Positions 18,917-27,705 of a stretch of DNA of 64,000 nucleotides are shown here, piece by piece. Each line of letters starts with the position of its first letter. The stretch's first letter is position 1. A program made the position numbers and the translations under genes. This stretch comes from Gammaproteobacteria bacterium (GTDB taxonomy: Bacteria > Pseudomonadota > Gammaproteobacteria > JAJDYQ01): NCBI GenBank assembly GCA_022825085.1, contig JAJDYQ010000036.1, forward strand, positions 3,007 through 67,006. The letters run 5' to 3'. The notes below the pieces were generated by a model, which worked only from the letters and a program-made list of their open reading frames with translations, was not told the DNA's origin and did no database searches.

Positions 18917-19045
18917 AAAACGGCTGCATGATCAACGGACTACACAGATACGTCACTCAGGCCCATCTTTTATGAGACAAACCTCCAGATTTATTCTGCA
19001 TATTGTACAATGGCGATCAATCCATGGATTGGCGGGATATGCTCG

Positions 19046-20140
19046 ATGGTTGGATTTGTAAATACGCCGGATTATGAACACGGAACCCGGGGCGTTACAG
19101 GTATTTTGCTGACGAATCTGGGTACCCCTGACGAGCCCAGGGCCAGCGCATTGCGTCGCTACCTTGCCGAATTTTTATCGGACCCCCGTGTGGTGGAATT
19201 CCCGCGCCTATTATGGATGCTTGTCCTGCATGGCATCATTTTGAATATCCGCCCGCGTCGCTCTGCTGAGGCCTATGCCAGAGTATGGACCAATGAAGGT
19301 TCTCCACTGCGGGTCATTTTGGAGAAGCAGGCGATAGCTGTTGAAACAGCCCTGCAGGCCAGAATTGATGGACCTGTCAAGGTCGAGCTGGCGATGCGCT
19401 ACGGCAAGCCTTCTATTGCCGATGGTCTGGAAAAGCTCCGTCAGGCCAACTGTACTCGCCTGCTGGTATTGCCGCTTTACCCGCAATACTCCGCAAGCAC
19501 ATCGGCTTCTACCTTCGATGCCGTTGCTGATACGCTGAAAACCTGGCGCCGGGTGCCGCAATTCCGCATGGTTATGGATTACCACCGGCATGACGCCTGG
19601 GTGGAGGCGGTCGCTCGCTCTATCCGCGAGCACTGGCAGAGACATGGCCGCAAGCAGAAACTCTTGATGTCGTTCCACGGTTTGCCGAGGCGCTTCCTGA
19701 CCAATGGCGACCCCTATCATTGCCAGTGCCATACCAGCGCCCGCCTGATTGCAGAAAAATTGAAACTGGCCGATGATGACTGGCAACTGGTTTTCCAGTC
19801 CCGCTTTGGACGGGAAGAGTGGTTGAGGCCTTACTGTGACCATACTCTGAAAGAGTGGGGAGAGAGCGGTGTTGAAGGTGTTGATGTAGTGTGCCCCGGC
19901 TTTTCTGCGGATTGTCTGGAAACACTGGAAGAGATTGCTATGGAAAATCGTGATATATTCCTCTCTGCTGGTGGTGGGCAGTATGCTTATATTCCGGCGC
20001 TCAATGACCACCCGGATCATATTGACGCCCTGACCAGCCTGATTGAGCAGAATCTCGCTGGCTGGTGTCTGGAGAGCGAACCGATCGAACAGCTACAGGC
20101 ATCCCGCAGCCGTGCTCTGGCCTGTGGTGCGCGGCAATAG
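19046..20140 (+). CDS. hemH: Ferrochelatase
   Basis: GILLTNLGTPD...RRYLAEFLSDPRVVE...LPLYPQYSASTS...FSFHGLP, HemH signatures. The start is taken at MVGFVN (19046). Confidence 0.9.
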   Translation: MVGFVNTPDYEHGTRGVTGILLTNLGTPDEPRASALRRYLAEFLSDPRVVEFPRLLWMLVLHGIILNIRPRRSAEAYARVWTNEGSPLRVILEKQAIAVETALQARIDGPVKVELAMRYGKPSIADGLEKLRQANCTRLLVLPLYPQYSASTSASTFDAVADTLKTWRRVPQFRMVMDYHRHDAWVEAVARSIREHWQRHGRKQKLLMSFHGLPRRFLTNGDPYHCQCHTSARLIAEKLKLADDDWQLVFQSRFGREEWLRPYCDHTLKEWGESGVEGVDVVCPGFSADCLETLEEIAMENRDIFLSAGGGQYAYIPALNDHPDHIDALTSLIEQNLAGWCLESEPIEQLQASRSRALACGARQ

Positions 20141-20181
20141 CGAGTAAAACTTTGGTCTAGGACATATACGGAATACTTCTT

Positions 20182-21195
20182 ATGAATAATGAGGAAAAAA
20201 TCAGAGCTGTTGAACTGCGTGATGAAGGAGAAACCTCCATGCGAGAAATTCACCCTCTATTGGAATCTCTGGATTTACGCACGGGTTACAGCAATAACAT
20301 TCTGATCCGCATGGTGATTATTGCGGGGGTAATTGCCGGCCTGGTGATCTGGCAACTTGATCTGATAAAGGATATCTACATTCGCCATCAGATTGAAGGT
20401 ATTGGCCCGCTGATTAACAGTAGTATCCTGGTGCTGTTTGCTGCGGGGTTACTCAAGCTGGTAATGATGTTCACACGCTATTCAAGGGAGGAGGCAGCCT
20501 TGAATCGTTTTATTCGCAACATCAGCCGGGACTCTACGGATCCAGTCAGGCGCGTGCCGATGAATTCACTTGTCTCGCGCCGCTACATGCTGATGCAGGC
20601 GATGTATGAGCAGCGTGTATTGATTAATCACAGCGCGCTGGCTTCCATGCTGCTGGCCAGTGAGAGCACCCGTACCAGCATGGCGAGATTCATCAACAAT
20701 ATTCTTATCCTGGCCGGGGTATTCGGCACAATCGTTTCGTTGTCCGTTGCCTTGTTGGGAGCTTCTGACTTGCTGACCGGTACGGATGGCACGGATGGTA
20801 TGTCAACCGTGCTCTCCGGCATGTCAACGGCGCTGTCAACCACCATTACGGCGATTATATGTTACCTGTATTTTGGTTATTTCTTCCTCAAGCTGCGGGA
20901 TGTGCAGACCAATGTCATAAACAGTATCGAACAGGTTACTGCGGCACTGCTGATGCCGAAATTCGGCCTGCGAAGTGATACGGTTATGCAGGATATTGCC
21001 TCTCTGGTACACAAGATGCAGAGTCTGGTTGGCAAGCTGGAAGAATCTCAGGCACGTTATTCGGCCTCGGGCCAAAAACTTCTTGATGCTGTCAGTAGTT
21101 ATGGTATTCGGGGCCAAACCATTTCCAGCGACATCAGCACCATAAAGCAGCTGCTTCGCTCCGGTTTCAGGCTGCATGAAGATGATGAAAATTAA
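20182..21195 (+). CDS. MotA/TolQ/ExbB-family proton-channel-like membrane protein
   Basis: 337 aa with four predicted TM helices. The C-terminal pair carries the family pattern: AGVFGTIVSL ... GMSTALSTTITAIICYLYFGYF (compare LGLLGTVxGM ... ALxTTxxGL). Confidence 0.6.
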   Translation: MNNEEKIRAVELRDEGETSMREIHPLLESLDLRTGYSNNILIRMVIIAGVIAGLVIWQLDLIKDIYIRHQIEGIGPLINSSILVLFAAGLLKLVMMFTRYSREEAALNRFIRNISRDSTDPVRRVPMNSLVSRRYMLMQAMYEQRVLINHSALASMLLASESTRTSMARFINNILILAGVFGTIVSLSVALLGASDLLTGTDGTDGMSTVLSGMSTALSTTITAIICYLYFGYFFLKLRDVQTNVINSIEQVTAALLMPKFGLRSDTVMQDIASLVHKMQSLVGKLEESQARYSASGQKLLDAVSSYGIRGQTISSDISTIKQLLRSGFRLHEDDEN

Positions 21196-21232
21196 ATACA
21201 GACTCGTGCCGGAATAGACAGGAGCAAACCCA

Positions 21233-22174
21233 GTGTTTACTGATGGCTTTACCGACCTTCGTATGAATCGCCAATCCGGTCAGGGTGATGATAGCTTCTG
21301 GCCGTCATTTACCGACATCATGACCGTGATCGTAATGATTTTCCTGTTGGCCATGGTAGTTGTGATGATTCGCAACAGCGAGCTGATCGTGAAGCTGAGG
21401 ACTACCATGGAGGCTGAACGTGAGCAGGCTGAACTGGTGCGTAAAACGGCTTCGGAAAAAGAGGGCCTGGCAATTCGCCTGATTGAGGTTGAACAATTGC
21501 TGTCCATGCTGCGCATGGAAAGTATGAAGATCACGGAACAACGTGATCTGGCACGCAAAAGTCTGGCAACACGCGATGCCGAACTGCATCAGGCGCGTTC
21601 CGATCTGGTTTCGTCCCAGGCATCTCTTGAGTCAACACGCAGCGAACTGGCACAGACCAGTGAAACCTTGCAGCAGACCAATACCCGCCTCGAACAGACC
21701 ACACAACAGCGTGATACCCTGTCCACTCAGCTTGCGGACAGTCGCAGCAGATATGCCGGCCTGCAAAGAGACTATCAGCAGCAGGGGCAGCAGCTACAAT
21801 CTGTCAGGCTTGATGCCGAGAACGTGAGCAGCAAACTTGCCGTGCTGGGTGGAGAGTATGATGATCTCAAGGAGAAATACGACAAACTGGTCAGGCCGGC
21901 CCGCACACCACGCGGCAAGACAGTAGTTGAAGTTCGTAAGACCAAGGTTGACGGCAATGAGCGGATCGCCATCAAACTGCCCGGTGAGGATGGTTTCAAA
22001 ACGGTCAATGAGCCTCGAATGCACAAAGAATTGGCCTCTCTGAAAGAAAAGTTTGACAAAACACTTTACGTCAAGATCATCTTTCCGGAAGACAGCGGTC
22101 TTTCATATAGCGAAGCCTGGGGCTTTACCAGCCAGCTGCATAATAAATACGATTACTACTTTCAGGAACAGTAA
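21233..22174 (+). CDS. MotB/ExbD-like TM anchor fused to a long coiled coil and an ExbD/TolR-like C-terminal domain
   Basis: GTG start. The N-terminus WPSFTDIMTVIVMIFLLAMVVV has the stator B-subunit pattern, with the Asp in the helix. Roughly 170 heptad-rich residues follow. The C-terminus VVEVRKTKVDGNERIAIKL...LYVKIIFPEDSGLSYSEAWGFTSQL resembles the ExbD/TolR periplasmic fold. I see no OmpA-like peptidoglycan-binding motif. Confidence 0.5.
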   Translation: MFTDGFTDLRMNRQSGQGDDSFWPSFTDIMTVIVMIFLLAMVVVMIRNSELIVKLRTTMEAEREQAELVRKTASEKEGLAIRLIEVEQLLSMLRMESMKITEQRDLARKSLATRDAELHQARSDLVSSQASLESTRSELAQTSETLQQTNTRLEQTTQQRDTLSTQLADSRSRYAGLQRDYQQQGQQLQSVRLDAENVSSKLAVLGGEYDDLKEKYDKLVRPARTPRGKTVVEVRKTKVDGNERIAIKLPGEDGFKTVNEPRMHKELASLKEKFDKTLYVKIIFPEDSGLSYSEAWGFTSQLHNKYDYYFQEQ

Positions 22175-22212
22175 GCGGCAGGGCAGTACCTCTCGGTGAT
22201 GAGCACCCCACC

Positions 22213-23343
22213 ATGAAATCATTGCGTTGGATAGCGCCGGTCACTTTTTTGCTGGCGATAGCGGTTGCGATCATGCTGGTCATCTCGAAACCGAGGGCAA
22301 ATACCGTGACCAGTACCGAGCCGGTCCGTCTGATTAATACCGTAACGATTCAACCGGATGTTCATTCGCCGTCCCTGCCGCTGTTTGTCAGAGTATCCAC
22401 ACCAAACCACGCCAGACTGCGCTCCGCCATTACAGCAGATATTAAAGAGATTATTGCGCTCGATGGAGACAGGGTAAGCAAAGGCGAAACACTGTTGCTG
22501 CTTGATGATCGGGAGGCGAGGCTGACGGTTCGGCAACGCCGGGCCGATATTCAGGACAGCCAGTCGCAGATTGATGCCGAGAATCTTGACCATAAAAATG
22601 AGATGTTTGTTATACAAAACGACGATGGCGAAGACGCCAGACGCAATCGTGAGCAAATTATCGAAAGACATAAAATCCGCCTGCGCGGGTTGGAGTCCCA
22701 AAAGCTGCGTGCCGAAGTTGCTCTCGAACTGGCCGAGCTGGACCTGCAGCGCACAGTGATTACCGCACCATTCGATGGGCAGGTCACACAGCTACATGTC
22801 TCTGTCGGCGACCGTGTCTCCCCCGGAGATCGCCTGATTGATGTCTATGACCGCCGATCCATGGAGCTGATTGGGCCCATACCGCGTCGTTATCAGGCGA
22901 CTTTGCAACAGGCGCTGGATAATGGTGAGCCACTGGCGGCTGTTTCCATCGATTCGGATACCATCATTCAAGCTGAACTTGTTCGTCTGGGTGGTGAGGT
23001 CAATGAGCGCAGCGGTGGGGTTAATGCCATATTCAGCATTACACAGGGTGGTGAATCTCTATCTCTGGGGCGCAGCCTCAGAGTTCAGCTACAGCTCCCG
23101 GCTGTTGCCAACAGTTTTGTTTTGAGCAATGCCGCCCTGTATGGTGCTGATACCATTTACCGGGTCGTCGATGGCCGCTTACAGGCTGTCAGGGTAAGTC
23201 GCCTTGGTGATTATATCGACAAAGAGCAGCCAGACGGCTCCCTGCTGCTCAGTGGAGAGGTGCGGGCAGGTGATGTTATTATGACCACACAGCTTCCCAA
23301 TGCGTCTGAGAACCTGCCTGTAAAAATCAGTAATCCATATTGA
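22213..23343 (+). CDS. Efflux RND transporter periplasmic adaptor (MFP/HlyD family)
   Basis: 376 aa with a TM anchor, a lipoyl-like hairpin (GDRVSKGETLLLLDD ... VITAPFDGQVTQLHVSVGDRVSPGDRL) and a coiled-coil insert. Confidence 0.85.
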   Translation: MKSLRWIAPVTFLLAIAVAIMLVISKPRANTVTSTEPVRLINTVTIQPDVHSPSLPLFVRVSTPNHARLRSAITADIKEIIALDGDRVSKGETLLLLDDREARLTVRQRRADIQDSQSQIDAENLDHKNEMFVIQNDDGEDARRNREQIIERHKIRLRGLESQKLRAEVALELAELDLQRTVITAPFDGQVTQLHVSVGDRVSPGDRLIDVYDRRSMELIGPIPRRYQATLQQALDNGEPLAAVSIDSDTIIQAELVRLGGEVNERSGGVNAIFSITQGGESLSLGRSLRVQLQLPAVANSFVLSNAALYGADTIYRVVDGRLQAVRVSRLGDYIDKEQPDGSLLLSGEVRAGDVIMTTQLPNASENLPVKISNPY

Positions 23344-26300
23344 TGTCTGACTTCAAGCATCGCGGTAATATTATCGGCACCTTCGCGCAGCATCGTGTTG
23401 CAGCCAATTTGTTAATGGTCATTATGATCATGTGTGGTTCTTTGGCACTATTCTATATTAACACACAGTTTTTTCCGGGCTATACCCTTGAAACTATTAA
23501 CGTGCGTGTTGCCTGGCGCGGTGCCAGTCCAGAAGAAATCGAAGATGGTCTGACCAATCGAATAGAAGAGGCGTTACGCACCCAGGAAAATCTGCGCACC
23601 ATGACCTCAACTTCGGTCGAAGGAATTTCTTCGATCACGCTGGAATATGAAACCGGTACCGATATGCCACGCGCTCTCGATCAGGTGCAGGAAAAGATCG
23701 CGCTGATCCGCGATTTACCTGCCGATATCGAGCAACCAGAAATTACCCGGATGACGATTTATGAACGTGTCGCAAGGCTGTTAATCTGGAGTGAGCACGA
23801 TGCACGCGCCTTGCCAGAATTGGCGCAACGACTGCAAAGAGAGCTATTGGACCGTGGCATATCGAGCGTTGAGATGACTGGATTGGAAAAGCAGGAAATT
23901 GCCATTCAGCTTTCTATCGAAGACATGCAGGAAATGAATATCTCGCTGGATCAGCTTGGGCGGCATATTGCCCGGCTCAGTGCCGAAGCACCGGTCGGCA
24001 ATATCAACCGTGATCTGTTGAGCCAGCAACTACGCAGCCCGAATAAAATTAAACAGGTCGAAGAATATGCCGAAGTACCACTGAATTTTGCAGGACAGAC
24101 CCTGCGCCTGGGTGATGTTGCCAATATCGAACGCCGTGCCCGTGATAATGAGACTACGATGAGCTATCGGGGATATCCGGCTATTGAGCTGCGCCTGCTT
24201 CGTATCGAAGGTTTTGACAGCCTGAAATCGGCACGCATCCTTGCAGAGTGGCTGGCTGAAACCGAACCCACATTGCCGCCTGGAATAGGCATACGGGTCT
24301 ATGATGAGCGCTGGCAGTACATTATGCAGCGCATCGGCCTGTTATTGGAGAACGGCCTTACCGGTCTGTTACTGGTTATTGCCATTTTGTTTTTCTTTTT
24401 GCGTGGCCCGGTAGCGTTCTGGGTTGCGGTCGGCATTCCGGTTTCCTTTATGGCGGCGCTGGCGGCGCTGTATGTATTTGGTGGTTCGATCAACATGGTC
24501 AGTCTGTTTGGCCTTATCATGGCTGTGGGTATTATCGTTGATGATGCTATTGTGGTGGGTGAGGATGCCATGACCCACTATCAGATGGGTGAGTCACCAC
24601 TCTCCGCTGCCGAAGGCGGTGCCTGGCGTATGCTTGCGCCTGTCATTTCTTCATCGCTAACAACGGTTGCCGCCTTCATTCCTTTGATGATGCTCGGCGG
24701 TTTTATTGGCAAGCTGTTATTTGCCATCCCGTTGGTAATTATCTGTGCCATACTGGCTTCGCTGATTGAGAGCTTTTTGATTCTGCCCGGTCATTTACGC
24801 TATTCCTTTGAGCGTATGCGTTCGCTCGGAGCAATCTCGGATCGACGCCGGCAAATGGAAGGCTGGTTTGACCACTTCCGTGATGGACACTTTCGTCGCT
24901 GGGTTGAATGCTGTATCGCCCACCCATGGCATACCCTGATGATTTTACTGGCTGTGGTTATCGTTACCATTGGTTTATTGGCCGGCAAGCGTATTCCATT
25001 TACTTTCATGCCACAAACAGAATCCGGTCAGATATCAGCCAATATCCAGTTCGCTGCCGGTACGCCGCGCCATATCGTCCGTGACTACGTGGCGACCGTG
25101 GAAAGGGCGCTGGATGATATGAATGAAGAGTTTCCCGGTGTCATTCTGCTGTACTCCAGTCGCCTCGGTGAAAACCTCAGCCGTCACAGCCGCAGCTCGC
25201 AAAGAGGTGACCGCTACGCCAGCATCCTGATCGAACTGACTCCCTCCGATGAACGTGATATGCGCAACCCCGAGTTCATCCGCCAGTTGCGTTCACGTGT
25301 CAATGAACCGGCGGCATTGGAAAATCTGCTGATTACCAGTCGGCAGGCCGGGCCGGGTGGACGCGATCTGACCTTTCAGTTAACCGGCTCATCACCACTG
25401 CAACTGAAGCAAGCGGCTGAGGCATTGAAAGAGATTCTGAATAATACCCGCTCGGTATTCAGTGTCGATGACGATATGCCATACGGTCAGACCCAGCTTA
25501 TCTTCAAACTCAATGCACAGGGTAAATCGCTGGGCATTACTACCGAGGCGATCAGCCAACAGATGCGAGCGGCGTATGATGGCTTCATCGTGCAAATCTT
25601 CCAGGACGGTTTTGATGAAATCGAGGTGCGCACTGTATTGCATGATGAACAGCGTAATGGCTTTTCCATGCTGGAGTCATTACCCATCATGCTGCCGGAT
25701 GGCGAACAGGCTGTGCTGGGGTCACTGGTTGATTTCCATCATCAACGCGGCTTTGAAATACTGCGCCATGAAAAAGGCCGACTGGCGCTCGAAGTCTCGG
25801 CCGATATCGACGAGACACAGGGCAATGCCAATGAAATCACCAATGAGATATTGACTCATGCGCTGCCCGGTATTGCTGCACGCTATAACATTGAATTTGC
25901 CGCCGTTGGTAATGCCGCCGATCAGCAGCAGACTTTCAGTGAGATGAAGATCGGTTCGCTGTTCGCATTGGCGCTGATCTACCTCATACTGGCCTGGATA
26001 TTTTCGTCCTATGGCTGGCCGCTGGTAGTGATAGCGATTATTCCATTCGCCATCATCGGTGCCATACTGGGACATTGGTTGACCGGTATCAACTTAACGA
26101 TTCTTTCACTGTTCGGTCTGTTTGGACTCGCCGGCATTGTCGTCAACGACTCAATCATTCTGGTGACATTTTACCGGCACCTGCGCAAGGAAGGCATGCC
26201 GCGACAACAGGCCATTGTGGAAGCCTCGGTGCGACGCCTGCGTGCCGTATTGCTCACGTCACTGACCACGATTGCCGGACTGACGCCACTTTTATTTGAA

Positions 26301-26471
26301 ACTTCGGTGCAGGCACAGTTTTTAATCCCCATGGCCACCTCCATCGTTTTTGGGTTGGGATTTTCGACGGTACTGGTTTTGGTTCTGGTGCCGTTGTTGC
26401 TGAATGCGTATGAAGCTCTGGCGGAGAAACTGTCAGGTCAGGCATCGGTAGCAGCGCCTGTGGTGAATTAA
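23340..26471 (+). CDS. Efflux RND transporter permease (AcrB/AcrD/AcrF family)
   Basis: 1043 aa with a 12-TM pseudo-repeat architecture and the conserved VGIIVDDAIVV / AGIVVNDSIIL TM4/TM10 motifs. There is a 4-nt overlap with the adaptor gene. Confidence 0.9.
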   Translation: MMSDFKHRGNIIGTFAQHRVAANLLMVIMIMCGSLALFYINTQFFPGYTLETINVRVAWRGASPEEIEDGLTNRIEEALRTQENLRTMTSTSVEGISSITLEYETGTDMPRALDQVQEKIALIRDLPADIEQPEITRMTIYERVARLLIWSEHDARALPELAQRLQRELLDRGISSVEMTGLEKQEIAIQLSIEDMQEMNISLDQLGRHIARLSAEAPVGNINRDLLSQQLRSPNKIKQVEEYAEVPLNFAGQTLRLGDVANIERRARDNETTMSYRGYPAIELRLLRIEGFDSLKSARILAEWLAETEPTLPPGIGIRVYDERWQYIMQRIGLLLENGLTGLLLVIAILFFFLRGPVAFWVAVGIPVSFMAALAALYVFGGSINMVSLFGLIMAVGIIVDDAIVVGEDAMTHYQMGESPLSAAEGGAWRMLAPVISSSLTTVAAFIPLMMLGGFIGKLLFAIPLVIICAILASLIESFLILPGHLRYSFERMRSLGAISDRRRQMEGWFDHFRDGHFRRWVECCIAHPWHTLMILLAVVIVTIGLLAGKRIPFTFMPQTESGQISANIQFAAGTPRHIVRDYVATVERALDDMNEEFPGVILLYSSRLGENLSRHSRSSQRGDRYASILIELTPSDERDMRNPEFIRQLRSRVNEPAALENLLITSRQAGPGGRDLTFQLTGSSPLQLKQAAEALKEILNNTRSVFSVDDDMPYGQTQLIFKLNAQGKSLGITTEAISQQMRAAYDGFIVQIFQDGFDEIEVRTVLHDEQRNGFSMLESLPIMLPDGEQAVLGSLVDFHHQRGFEILRHEKGRLALEVSADIDETQGNANEITNEILTHALPGIAARYNIEFAAVGNAADQQQTFSEMKIGSLFALALIYLILAWIFSSYGWPLVVIAIIPFAIIGAILGHWLTGINLTILSLFGLFGLAGIVVNDSIILVTFYRHLRKEGMPRQQAIVEASVRRLRAVLLTSLTTIAGLTPLLFETSVQAQFLIPMATSIVFGLGFSTVLVLVLVPLLLNAYEALAEKLSGQASVAAPVVN

Positions 26472-26535
26472 AGAGTAAGCTGCTGTTTCGCAAAATATCA
26501 ATGTAATAAATAGTTTAAACGAGTTATAATGTCCG

Positions 26536-26567
26536 CTTTCCCCAAAAGGCATTGCGGGAAAGTTTTT
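26536..26567 (+). terminator. Candidate rho-independent terminator after the RND gene
   Basis: CTTTCCC (26536-26542) pairs with GGGAAAG (26556-26562) and is followed by TTTTT. The loop is long (13 nt), so this is only moderate. Confidence 0.4.
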
Positions 26568-26616
26568 AATTCATGATATTTAACAATCAATTCTGGTGCT
26601 TTAAAAAGATTTCAAA

Positions 26617-27546
26617 ATGATCCTTACCAGAATCATACCTACAAAAGAAAGGGTGCGGTTTGCAAAATTAACTTTGCGGCACGCATTATTATTCTTGCGA
26701 AATACAGTGAGTGCAAACAGTATTACTGTGGATTGGAGAGAGAATTACCCTGTTGCTACAGCATTAGATTGCATAGTTGCCGCGGCATGGCTTCTGGAAA
26801 TACGGGGCATCACCCTGAAGTTTAGGCAGTCCTCCAATGCAATGTGGCAGCATTTCGAGAGTGATACTCTGAGCAAGGCAACGGACAGGTCAGAGCAGGA
26901 ATCCAGCTCTTCCCGGGAGGTTATTCTGGCCAAATCGATGGCCTATATTGCGACGATTTTTATTTCCTCCGAGTATGGACATAAAGTAATTACCCGATTG
27001 TCTATCAAGGAAGACCTCAGAAAGTCTGCCAATGAGTGGTTTGAAAACCATATCAAGGGAGATTGGGTAGCCGTCCATTATCGTGGCACAGATATAAGGG
27101 AAAATCGGAATGGATATTGTAAAAGCAGATACAGGATAGAGATGAAGCCGTATGTGAATTATCTGAAAGGGGTGCTGGACAGTCAATGCAGCATTTTTGC
27201 CTGTTCGGATCAGGCACAATTCATTGATGAGGTGAAGGCGGCATTTCCAGGGCGGGTGTTCGCGCGAGATATAAAACGCTCTTACGATGGCAAGCCTCTT
27301 CATCTTAACTTTGTCCCGCTTGCGGAGAGTCACGATTATGATCAGGAGAGGGATGCCTTGATAGATGTTTTAGTATTGGCAAAGGCCGAATTAATCTATA
27401 CAACCGGTTCAGGGTTTGTAGATGTGGTCAGATATTTTAATCCAGAGACTAAAATTGTATCGCTGGACGGAAGAACAATAGGGAGAGGGAAAAACAATGC
27501 GCCTATTCCTGAGCCGGATTTATTCAAAAGATTATCCCTGCCTTGA
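26617..27546 (+). CDS. Fucosyltransferase-superfamily-like glycosyltransferase, paralogue 4
   Basis: 309 aa with the same HYRGTD / IFACSDQ / ERDALIDVLVLAKAELIYTTGSGFVDVVRYF motifs. The last ~70 residues are almost identical to paralogue 3. Confidence 0.6.
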   Translation: MILTRIIPTKERVRFAKLTLRHALLFLRNTVSANSITVDWRENYPVATALDCIVAAAWLLEIRGITLKFRQSSNAMWQHFESDTLSKATDRSEQESSSSREVILAKSMAYIATIFISSEYGHKVITRLSIKEDLRKSANEWFENHIKGDWVAVHYRGTDIRENRNGYCKSRYRIEMKPYVNYLKGVLDSQCSIFACSDQAQFIDEVKAAFPGRVFARDIKRSYDGKPLHLNFVPLAESHDYDQERDALIDVLVLAKAELIYTTGSGFVDVVRYFNPETKIVSLDGRTIGRGKNNAPIPEPDLFKRLSLP

Positions 27547-27705
27547 GGAGGCGCACTGTATGATTGCTGTTAAACTGCCTGTTTTATGATTCAAGGTATT
27601 GCTGTTGCTTCCTTACCACCAATGTTCTTGAAGAAATACCGGTGCGTAAAAATTTCGAAAATCCGGTTATAATATTAAGCCTTATCAAATTCGGTTACCG
27701 GTTGT

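Follow-up and report, generated by a model that had tools for sequence, protein, structure and literature searches.

A motor-like gene pair with a heptad-phased coiled-coil rod stands beside a probably independent RND efflux pair in a gammaproteobacterial sponge symbiont

Results

A motor-like pair and an efflux pair lie side by side

We analysed a stretch of 64,000 nucleotides (hereafter the window) from contig JAJDYQ010000036.1 of the gammaproteobacterial assembly GCA_022825085.1, a compact metagenome-assembled genome (MAG) of 1.95 Mb, 87% complete, from a sponge metagenome. Four same-strand genes in the window encode, in order, a divergent membrane protein of the MotA/ExbB/TolQ fold (A), a protein in which an Asp-bearing transpore helix runs on into a long predicted coiled coil and a small terminal domain (B), a membrane-fusion protein (MFP) and a permease of the resistance-nodulation-division (RND) type (Table 1). 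An earlier sequence-only reading of this region had described a stator-like pair in an apparent operon with an MFP/RND pump, and had suggested that pair and pump work together. The gene layout that it gave was accurate: the four co-oriented open reading frames (ORFs) are separated by 37 bp between A and B and by 38 bp between B and MFP, the MFP and RND genes overlap by 4 nt, and A begins 41 bp after hemH. The apparent operon held up only in part. The short gaps are real, but unrelated housekeeping genes in the window, hemH and A among them, are also spaced by just 21-93 bp; short gaps are a trait of this compact genome and not evidence for an operon. Our analysis makes it likely that the region consists of two independent two-gene modules, side by side in a sponge-symbiont lineage, with A-B as a motor-like pair. 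Fetched loci are labelled L001-L143, of which L086 and L087 belong to the source genome itself, and G labels denote sampled genomes.

Table 1. Coordinates of the features discussed, numbered from the first nucleotide of the window
Feature	Position	Strand	Basis and remarks
hemH (ferrochelatase), context only	19010..20140	+	Pfam Ferrochelatase 2.2e-117, full-length
Gene A, divergent MotA/ExbB/TolQ-fold membrane protein, 337 aa	20182..21195	+	Sub-threshold Pfam MotA_ExbB match, ZorA models, Foldseek
A channel core, residues 163-250, transmembrane helices 3 and 4 (TM3-TM4)	20668..20931	+	Pfam, PADLOC and hhalign matches; invariant motifs
A cytoplasmic helical tail, residues ~262-337, closing with invariant G-F-R-L	20965..21192	+	Model helix 268-329
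Gene B, 313 aa	21233..22174	+	GTG start, AGGAG eight bases 5'; N-terminus agrees with homologues
B putative transpore helix, residues 22-47, invariant Asp28 (codon 21314-21316)	21296..21373	+	ZorB/MotB models, PDB chains
B predicted periplasmic coiled-coil rod, residues 48-220, ~25 nm	21374..21892	+	Predicted helix, heptad-step lengths
B tip domain, residues 221-313, b-b-b-a-b-a-b, family-specific	21893..22171	+	AlphaFold model, profile search
MFP (periplasmic adaptor of RND pump), separate module	22213..23343	+	HlyD_3 1.5e-11; TIGR01730 RND_mfp
RND permease (AcrB family), separate module	23340..26471	+	ACR_tran 4.5e-166 over full length

Gene A encodes a divergent motor-type membrane subunit

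Sequence profiles placed A just outside the formal limits of the MotA/ExbB/TolQ superfamily. The match to Pfam MotA_ExbB (PF01618) covers residues 163-250 and scored 16.6 bits (E 0.0067) against a cut-off of 22.9; two A homologues scored 15.0 and 16.3 bits, and A itself reached 18.1 bits in the whole-genome scan, all below the cut-off. ZorA models of PADLOC matched A weakly (1.5e-4) and in the core region only, and a profile of A searched against PDB sequences matched nothing useful. By hhalign, A gave no significant alignment with the canonical TolQ and ExbB of the source genome; the proteins of that genome nearest to A were two other non-canonical MotA-like proteins, aligned over the channel core (P 5e-5 to 2e-4).

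Structural comparison pointed to the same superfamily. When an AlphaFold model of A, of moderate confidence with a predicted local distance difference test (pLDDT) score of 65, was searched against PDB with Foldseek, approximately 40 of the top 50 matches were ExbB, TolQ, ZorA, PomA or MotA chains, mostly at a probability of 0.97-1.0, and the best target-normalised template-modelling score (TM-score) was 0.60, to TolQ (8vlw_A). Inspection of the sequence indicated four hydrophobic segments (residues ~41-58, 76-98, 171-194 and 214-236). In an alignment of 15 sequences the last two of these helices contain the invariant motifs FINN.LIL.GVFGTI and GMSTALSTTITAI, and residues G182, T183, S215, T216, S219, T220, T221 and T223 are all invariant. 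We read these motifs as the putative Gly/Thr-rich signature of the MotA/ExbB/TolQ superfamily. We conclude that A is a divergent member of the MotA/ExbB/TolQ fold, though below Pfam's formal threshold. The assignment of A to this type in the sequence-only reading is thus upheld by the fold and by the conserved TM3-TM4 residues, but not by the Pfam profile.

The end of the cytoplasmic tail of A (residues 328-337, 21165-21192) holds the G-F-R-L motif, G328, F329, R330 and L331, which is invariant among homologues only 45-50% identical overall. This GFRL end may be a docking site for a cytoplasmic partner. More than 2000 homologues of A were found, a few of which are named 'MotA/TolQ/ExbB proton channel family protein' by NCBI.

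Gene B joins an Asp-bearing transpore helix to a family-specific tip domain

Residues 21-30 of B read SFWPSFTDIM, and the segment SFWPSFTD, with Asp28, is invariant in 15 diverse homologues; we read the Asp28 codon directly in the DNA. The N-terminal helix matches ZorB/MotB models (7e-8) as well as the MotB-related PDB chains 8vvn_B and 8vvi_A and the ZorB chain 8qyd_F, in keeping with the earlier claim that B begins with a helix retaining the Asp equivalent to that of MotB, ExbD and TolR. In the AlphaFold model B is predicted to form a single helix over residues 26-220 (pLDDT 93-97), followed by a small domain at 230-310. Pfam and NCBIfam scans found no OmpA-family domain in B, which agrees with the earlier observation that it has no OmpA-like anchor. 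Like A, B has more than 2000 homologues.

The claim that B ends in an ExbD/TolR-like fold was not sustained by Foldseek, hhalign or HMMER searches against PDB. The tip domain belongs to no Pfam family. A B profile searched against PDB sequences with HMMER matched in the helix region alone, leaving the tip domain without a relative, and Foldseek found no significant match for the full B model (best E 0.015) and no ExbD or TolR chain in the top 50. RNase H-like/integrase cores (E 0.015-0.1) were rejected as homologues of the tip domain, with which they share only the generic b-b-b-a-b-a-b order. Alignment of the tip domain with the source genome's own TolR and ExbD by hhalign was not significant (P 0.07-0.3), and Pfam ExbD (PF02472) matched in one B homologue only, over the helix region (E 0.033). 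The b-b-b-a-b-a-b order of the tip does agree with our reading of the TolR sequence of the source genome. However, a search of 1.84 billion representative proteins with the tip-domain profile returned only 372 clusters, far fewer than expected if ExbD/TolR proteins had been detected. In the 150 clusters listed, the tip domain is C-terminal in proteins of ~110-540 aa, of which the shortest are probably fragments. The likeness of the tip domain to ExbD/TolR is an unproven topological resemblance.

Scans of A and B also returned matches to SMC, Rad50 and crescentin, which we dismissed as coiled-coil noise. Database names follow a similar pattern: UniRef calls the B homologue of the Solemya pervernicosa gill symbiont (L114) 'Chromosome partition protein Smc', and JGI calls other B homologues 'chromosome segregation ATPase' or 'myosin heavy subunit'. 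These names are coiled-coil artefacts that hide the B family in databases, where B is otherwise 'hypothetical'.

The rod of B changes length in heptad steps

Residues 48-220 of B make up ~173 residues of continuous predicted coiled coil, which at ~0.15 nm per residue corresponds to ~25 nm. As a measure of rod length across the family we counted the residues between the helix Asp and the P-A-R motif, itself invariant, with which the tip domain begins; the count is 194 in the B of the window. This distance equalled 5 modulo 7 in all 119 close homologues (8 distinct lengths, 187-243 residues) and in 99 of 100 B proteins derived from the fetched loci (18 distinct lengths, 180-488 residues). Among representatives clustered at 50% identity, 84 of 109 fell at 5 modulo 7 and 13 more at 2 modulo 7, where chance would give 14% per class. 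All distances were obtained by simple motif matching, and a few exceptions may be mis-assignments. The 2-modulo-7 class is the one expected from a four-residue 'stutter'. The rod lengths are bounded below near 23-25 nm.

We conclude that the coiled coil keeps a fixed heptad register all the way from the transpore helix to the tip, its length changing almost only by whole heptads. These heptad-step lengths suggest a rigid two-stranded shaft, not a floppy linker. The sequence-only reading had counted about 170 heptad-rich residues and considered them able to span the periplasm; the ~173-residue rod is consistent with this, and could act as an arm.

A and B form an autonomous single-copy pair in many families

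When one genome per Genome Taxonomy Database (GTDB) species was scanned, a relative of A turned up in at least 551 of them, and the 80 closest loci were inspected. For a wider sample, 401 genomes drawn evenly across Gammaproteobacteria were searched with the tip-domain profile. The tip domain was present in 56 of the 401, always once per genome; these carriers bear 34 family labels, and at least 19 families have A-B in both of their sampled genomes. The two genes were adjacent in every neighbourhood examined (120/120), that is, in all 80 closest loci and in all 40 neighbourhoods that were fetched for carriers among the 56, from ~36 other families. No third neighbour of A-B is conserved across families in the 40 diverse loci, where the flanks are assorted housekeeping genes.

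Candidate partners with a narrower distribution were considered and set aside. In 36 of the 80 closest loci (Sedimenticolaceae, e.g. L010 and L029) B is directly followed by one or two co-oriented genes for Slp-family outer-membrane lipoproteins; as neither the 40 diverse loci nor the genome of the window has such genes there, they were rejected as a general partner. A glycerate-kinase-like gene, LpxH, TsaB, Dtd, HisB and HisH were likewise rejected as lineage-specific housekeeping neighbours.

A-B is therefore an autonomous, vertically inherited, single-copy gene pair in many gammaproteobacterial families. Full-text literature searches found no published description of it, and the pair is apparently an undescribed family of 5:2-type motors. 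Single copy, conservation in many families, including chemosynthetic symbionts, and the presence of its RNA in a sponge host make a housekeeping role in the envelope plausible.

The MFP and RND genes encode an ordinary efflux pair

The MFP scored 45.4 bits against the HlyD_3 cut-off of 22.2, and 94.2 bits against TIGR01730 RND_mfp, whose cut-off is 94.9. An AcrB-family permease next to a membrane-fusion protein is the arrangement of a tripartite RND pump, and MFP and RND are an ordinary efflux pair. A Pfam scan found no outer-membrane factor within the four-gene cluster, as the sequence-only reading had noted. This absence is not unusual, since in the five orthologous pumps that we fetched from genomes without A-B there was also no ORF of the size of an outer-membrane factor beside the pump. 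MFP-RND pairs of this kind normally occur with no such factor at their side. At least four OEP-family outer-membrane-factor genes are encoded elsewhere in the source genome (contigs C51, C78, C1 and C85), together with five or six further RND genes. We infer that MFP-RND uses one of these outer-membrane factors.

Motor pair and pump occur apart in most genomes

The sequence-only reading had stated that the pairing of motor and pump would be refuted if the two gene pairs were not syntenic in other genomes, and this is the outcome that we obtained. MFP and RND directly follow B in 6 of the 80 closest loci (L001-L006, A identity at least 73%), all in the window's own clade, and stand next to A-B in none of the 40 loci from ~36 other families. 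Loci in which A-B is not followed by MFP/RND include those of Thiodiazotropha, Sedimenticola, Chromatiales, a Methylococcales MAG and several invertebrate symbionts; in some Thiodiazotropha an unrelated RND gene (25% identity) lies some kilobases from A-B on the opposite strand. In a quick tree of 99 A proteins, the seven RND-adjacent entries formed one clade with 100% support, nested well inside the tree. As the RND-adjacent loci are a single nested clade, the adjacency needs only one origin.

The pump also occurs without the pair. Orthologues of the RND permease (41-52% identity) are present in G022, G004, G027, G021, G009, G013 and G010, all seven of which lack A-B. Five of these RND-orthologue genomes were fetched, and in four of them tblastn verified that an MFP gene (26-33% identity) lies upstream of the RND gene. 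Conversely, G019 and G025 carry A-B and no close RND orthologue. Across the sampled genomes the presence of A-B and that of MFP/RND are uncorrelated. These comparisons do not bear out a functional pairing of motor and pump, and A-B and MFP/RND are probably two independent modules, neighbours rather than partners. The pump would need no motor, and the motor would need no pump.

RNA coverage of the locus falls after B

Only one sponge metatranscriptome contained the locus, from a strain ~96-97% identical to the window. Its RNA contigs extend across the junction of hemH with A (19914-20687), over A and through almost the whole of B (21242-22169). In a stretch of 20 kb, contig depth was 5-9 for A and B, 4-14 for housekeeping genes and 5-6 for ribF and ileS, and 0-3 over MFP, RND and the glycosyltransferase-like gene that follows them (22300-27600). 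The dip at MFP/RND argues against both DNA carry-over and uniform co-expression. No terminator-like site or stable hairpin was found in the gaps between the genes.

Flanking genes and other motors of the source genome

The hemH gene stands 5' of A in L001-L005 as it does in the window. On the other side, RND is followed by a glycosyltransferase-like gene (26617-27546) and then by ribF and ileS, all in a long co-oriented run on the + strand. The closest complete relative, L002, lacks the glycosyltransferase-like gene at this position: there ~170 bp separate the end of RND from the start of ribF, and a copy with 64% identity is found upstream instead. The gene in the window looks like a recent local duplication or insertion.

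The source genome also encodes TolQ-TolR-TolA-TolB and ExbB-ExbB-ExbD-TonB loci. The sequence-only reading held that A-B was not a Tol or TonB set, and these separate loci support this; with canonical Tol and Ton loci in the same genome, A-B is not a replacement for either.

Two further loci of the source genome encode motor-like proteins. In L086 (contig C63:31904-35212) two genes stand behind one for a TolQ-like protein of 272 aa; their products, of 353 and 331 aa, both combine a coiled coil with a transpore helix that bears an Asp (FLDVM and FLDII, respectively), and the first of the two matches Pfam VWA_2. This set matches the family proposed in PMC12204202 (section 8), in which a transpore helix is joined to a vWA domain (TPH-vWA). 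In L087 (contig C28:12092-15361) the gene for a MotA_ExbB protein (249 aa, 31 bits) precedes that for a 202-aa protein, which has a FTDLLFNALLGF helix at its N-terminus and matches no Pfam domain. The L087 MotA_ExbB protein is the closest relative of A in the source genome (hhalign P 5e-5). The authors of PMC12204202 stress that more trans-envelope systems driven by 5:2 motors are still to be found.

Discussion

The transpore helix with Asp28, the A fold of motor A subunits, and a heptad-phased helix that leads to a conserved tip are direct results of the analysis. From these we infer that A-B is a motor powered by protons or other ions and akin to MotAB, ExbBD and TolQR, which form 5:2 complexes. 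Five A subunits would ring a B dimer at its pair of transpore helices, with Asp28 of B as the ion-binding residue and the conserved Thr and Ser residues of TM3 and TM4 of A lining the channel. No flexible linker would separate the B helix from the ~25-nm two-stranded coiled coil in the periplasm, and the coiled coil would be capped by two copies of the small family-specific domain. Ion flow through the Asp and Thr sites would turn A relative to the B dimer, and the rigid shaft would carry rotation or force to a partner near the peptidoglycan or the outer membrane, with no separate TonB or TolA. Since B has neither a flexible linker nor a peptidoglycan anchor, the moving part would be either the B shaft, working a partner at its tip ~25 nm away, or the A ring, turning while the tip stays fixed. 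We give an even chance to the proposal that A-B is a new class of ion-driven 5:2 rotary motor, in which the axle is itself a rigid coiled-coil driveshaft that spans the periplasm and passes force to a tip partner without TonB or TolA. Many sulfur-oxidising, symbiotic and sediment Gammaproteobacteria would then have such a motor as a core machine of their envelope; coupling of this driveshaft motor to the RND pump in the sponge symbionts is a less likely extension.

Several points weigh against the reading of the region as a motor-like pair beside an unconnected pump. The 5:2 stoichiometry, the ion coupling and the periplasmic location of the rod are deductions from fold and motif; the Foldseek E-values for A are weak (0.0085-0.5), and the pLDDT of the model on which they depend is only 65. 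The 38-bp gap between B and MFP holds no terminator-like hairpin, one low-depth RNA contig (22138-22412) bridges B into MFP, and contig depth is a crude and poor measure of expression. The short gap and the bridging contig allow weak read-through from B, so that co-transcription, and a use of the pair with the pump in this lineage only, may still occur. Finally, the four-gene order is kept in the window's clade down to 73% identity in A and 51% in MFP.

The strongest alternative built on these points is that the sponge-symbiont clade recruited A-B to the pump, with the B rod and tip docking on MFP-RND or on the outer-membrane channel and gating, assembling or powering it, as in SiiAB. It has a published precedent in SiiAB (bioRxiv 10.1101/641415), which is counted among the 5:2 motors in PMC12204202, and it would fit the order hemH-A-B-MFP-RND, kept across the clade (L001-L006, same-genus genomes), the short gaps, the MFP/RND gene overlap, the lack of a terminator and the RNA contig across the B-MFP junction. 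We nonetheless consider it unlikely, as the adjacency arose once on a nested branch and is missing from 74 of the 80 closest loci as well as from all 40 distant ones, and each module is found without the other in other genomes. The B tip of the window's clade shows no obvious change that might accompany a new partner, its length being the same and the family-invariant residues being kept. RNA depth falls at least several-fold after B. Moreover, hemH is equally close to A, yet no one would couple hemH to the motor. A second motor driven by the proton motive force and feeding an RND pump is thus a negative result, which saves effort on a coupling that the comparative data do not support.

It could also be argued that nothing moves at all: B would be a passive coiled-coil spacer or scaffold of the envelope, anchored in the inner membrane, and A merely its membrane chaperone, with no ion-driven movement. 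A tip domain without recognisable relatives and rod lengths sharply bounded below near the width of the periplasm would both suit such a spacer. However, the Asp of B and the Gly-Thr, Ser-Thr and Thr-Thr motifs of TM3 and TM4 of A are invariant. These are hallmarks of ion coupling in the superfamily, which a passive anchor would have no reason to keep, and A and B are always encoded together. This makes a purely structural role for B improbable.

It is hardly credible that A-B is a Zorya-like motor, or some other sensor of phage attack, whose ZorC and ZorD were lost or never present. In favour of this reading, the best profile matches of both A and B are to ZorA and ZorB models, and the helical cytoplasmic tail of A carries a conserved motif at its tip. 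Against it, the matches are weak and limited to the shared channel core and transpore helix (27 bits for ZorB1 against a 400-bit cut-off), the A tail has ~75-100 residues and not hundreds, the flanks hold hemH and MFP/RND, and elsewhere housekeeping genes, with no ZorC, ZorD or other effector, the pair, single-copy and vertically inherited, has housekeeping genes around it in at least 34 families, unlike defence islands, and B has no OmpA-like peptidoglycan anchor. The earlier statement that the system is not Zorya therefore stands, on the short A tail, the missing ZorC and ZorD and the single-copy core-genome setting.

If the motor reading of A-B is correct, the pair joins the small set of 5:2 ion-driven motors, which comprises the flagellar, Ton, Tol, gliding and Zorya systems. 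A side-mounted arm (TonB or TolA) and a shaft of folded domains (GldM) are the known means of carrying force across the periplasm; a coiled coil that directly prolongs the transpore helix would be a third. The heptad-quantised lengths of B would in addition be a natural experiment on whether the phase and length of a shaft matter.

Comparison with known systems

The Tol and Ton systems resemble A-B in several respects. In fold, A comes nearest to ExbB and TolQ, the N-terminus of B is a transpore helix with an Asp, the A gene precedes the B gene, and both kinds of system would couple the inner membrane to something across the periplasm. In contrast to Tol and Ton, A-B has no third protein: its arm lies within B, in register with the transpore helix, whereas TolA and TonB dock from the side. 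A is read as having four hydrophobic segments, as in MotA, instead of three, and the B tip has no significant match to TolR or ExbD.

In the GldLM/PorLM motors of gliding and type IX secretion in Bacteroidota, a dimer of the inner subunit forms a rigid shaft that crosses the periplasm and is thought to rotate within the pentamer. The GldM shaft consists of folded domains, not of a coiled coil, and has its own charged residues and sequence family. GldLM/PorLM further differ from A-B in belonging to another phylum and in being encoded among type IX secretion genes, and we saw no sequence match to A-B.

The TPH-vWA proteins (PMC12204202) share with A-B a TolQ-like gene followed by an Asp-bearing transpore helix fused to a periplasmic part that does not bind peptidoglycan, and they too have no separate TolR, ExbD, TolA or TonB. 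They differ in that B has a long heptad-phased coiled coil and a small new domain where they have vWA, in that there is one B gene and not a heterologous pair, and in the sequence family of A.

SiiAB of Salmonella pathogenicity island 4 (SPI-4) demonstrates that a stator-like pair can serve a tripartite exporter with a membrane-fusion protein (bioRxiv 10.1101/641415). This MotAB-like pair, encoded with its exporter, is the only precedent for the proposed coupling to the pump, and to that extent it speaks against our separation of the two modules. However, SiiA has a peptidoglycan-binding periplasmic domain, and the SPI-4 partner is an ABC-type type I secretion system with its outer-membrane protein alongside, all in one island. 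The adjacency of A-B and pump is limited to one genus-level clade, and each module stands alone elsewhere.

ZorAB gave the best profile matches for the channel core and the transpore helix, and its A subunit shares a helical cytoplasmic tail with ours; the tail of A has ~75 residues where that of ZorA has hundreds, B lacks a peptidoglycan-binding domain, ZorC and ZorD are missing, and the pair belongs to the core genome and not to a defence island. By analogy of function, A-B would stand nearest to the TPH-vWA proteins, to the GldM shaft and to a Tol or Ton motor whose arm had become part of B.

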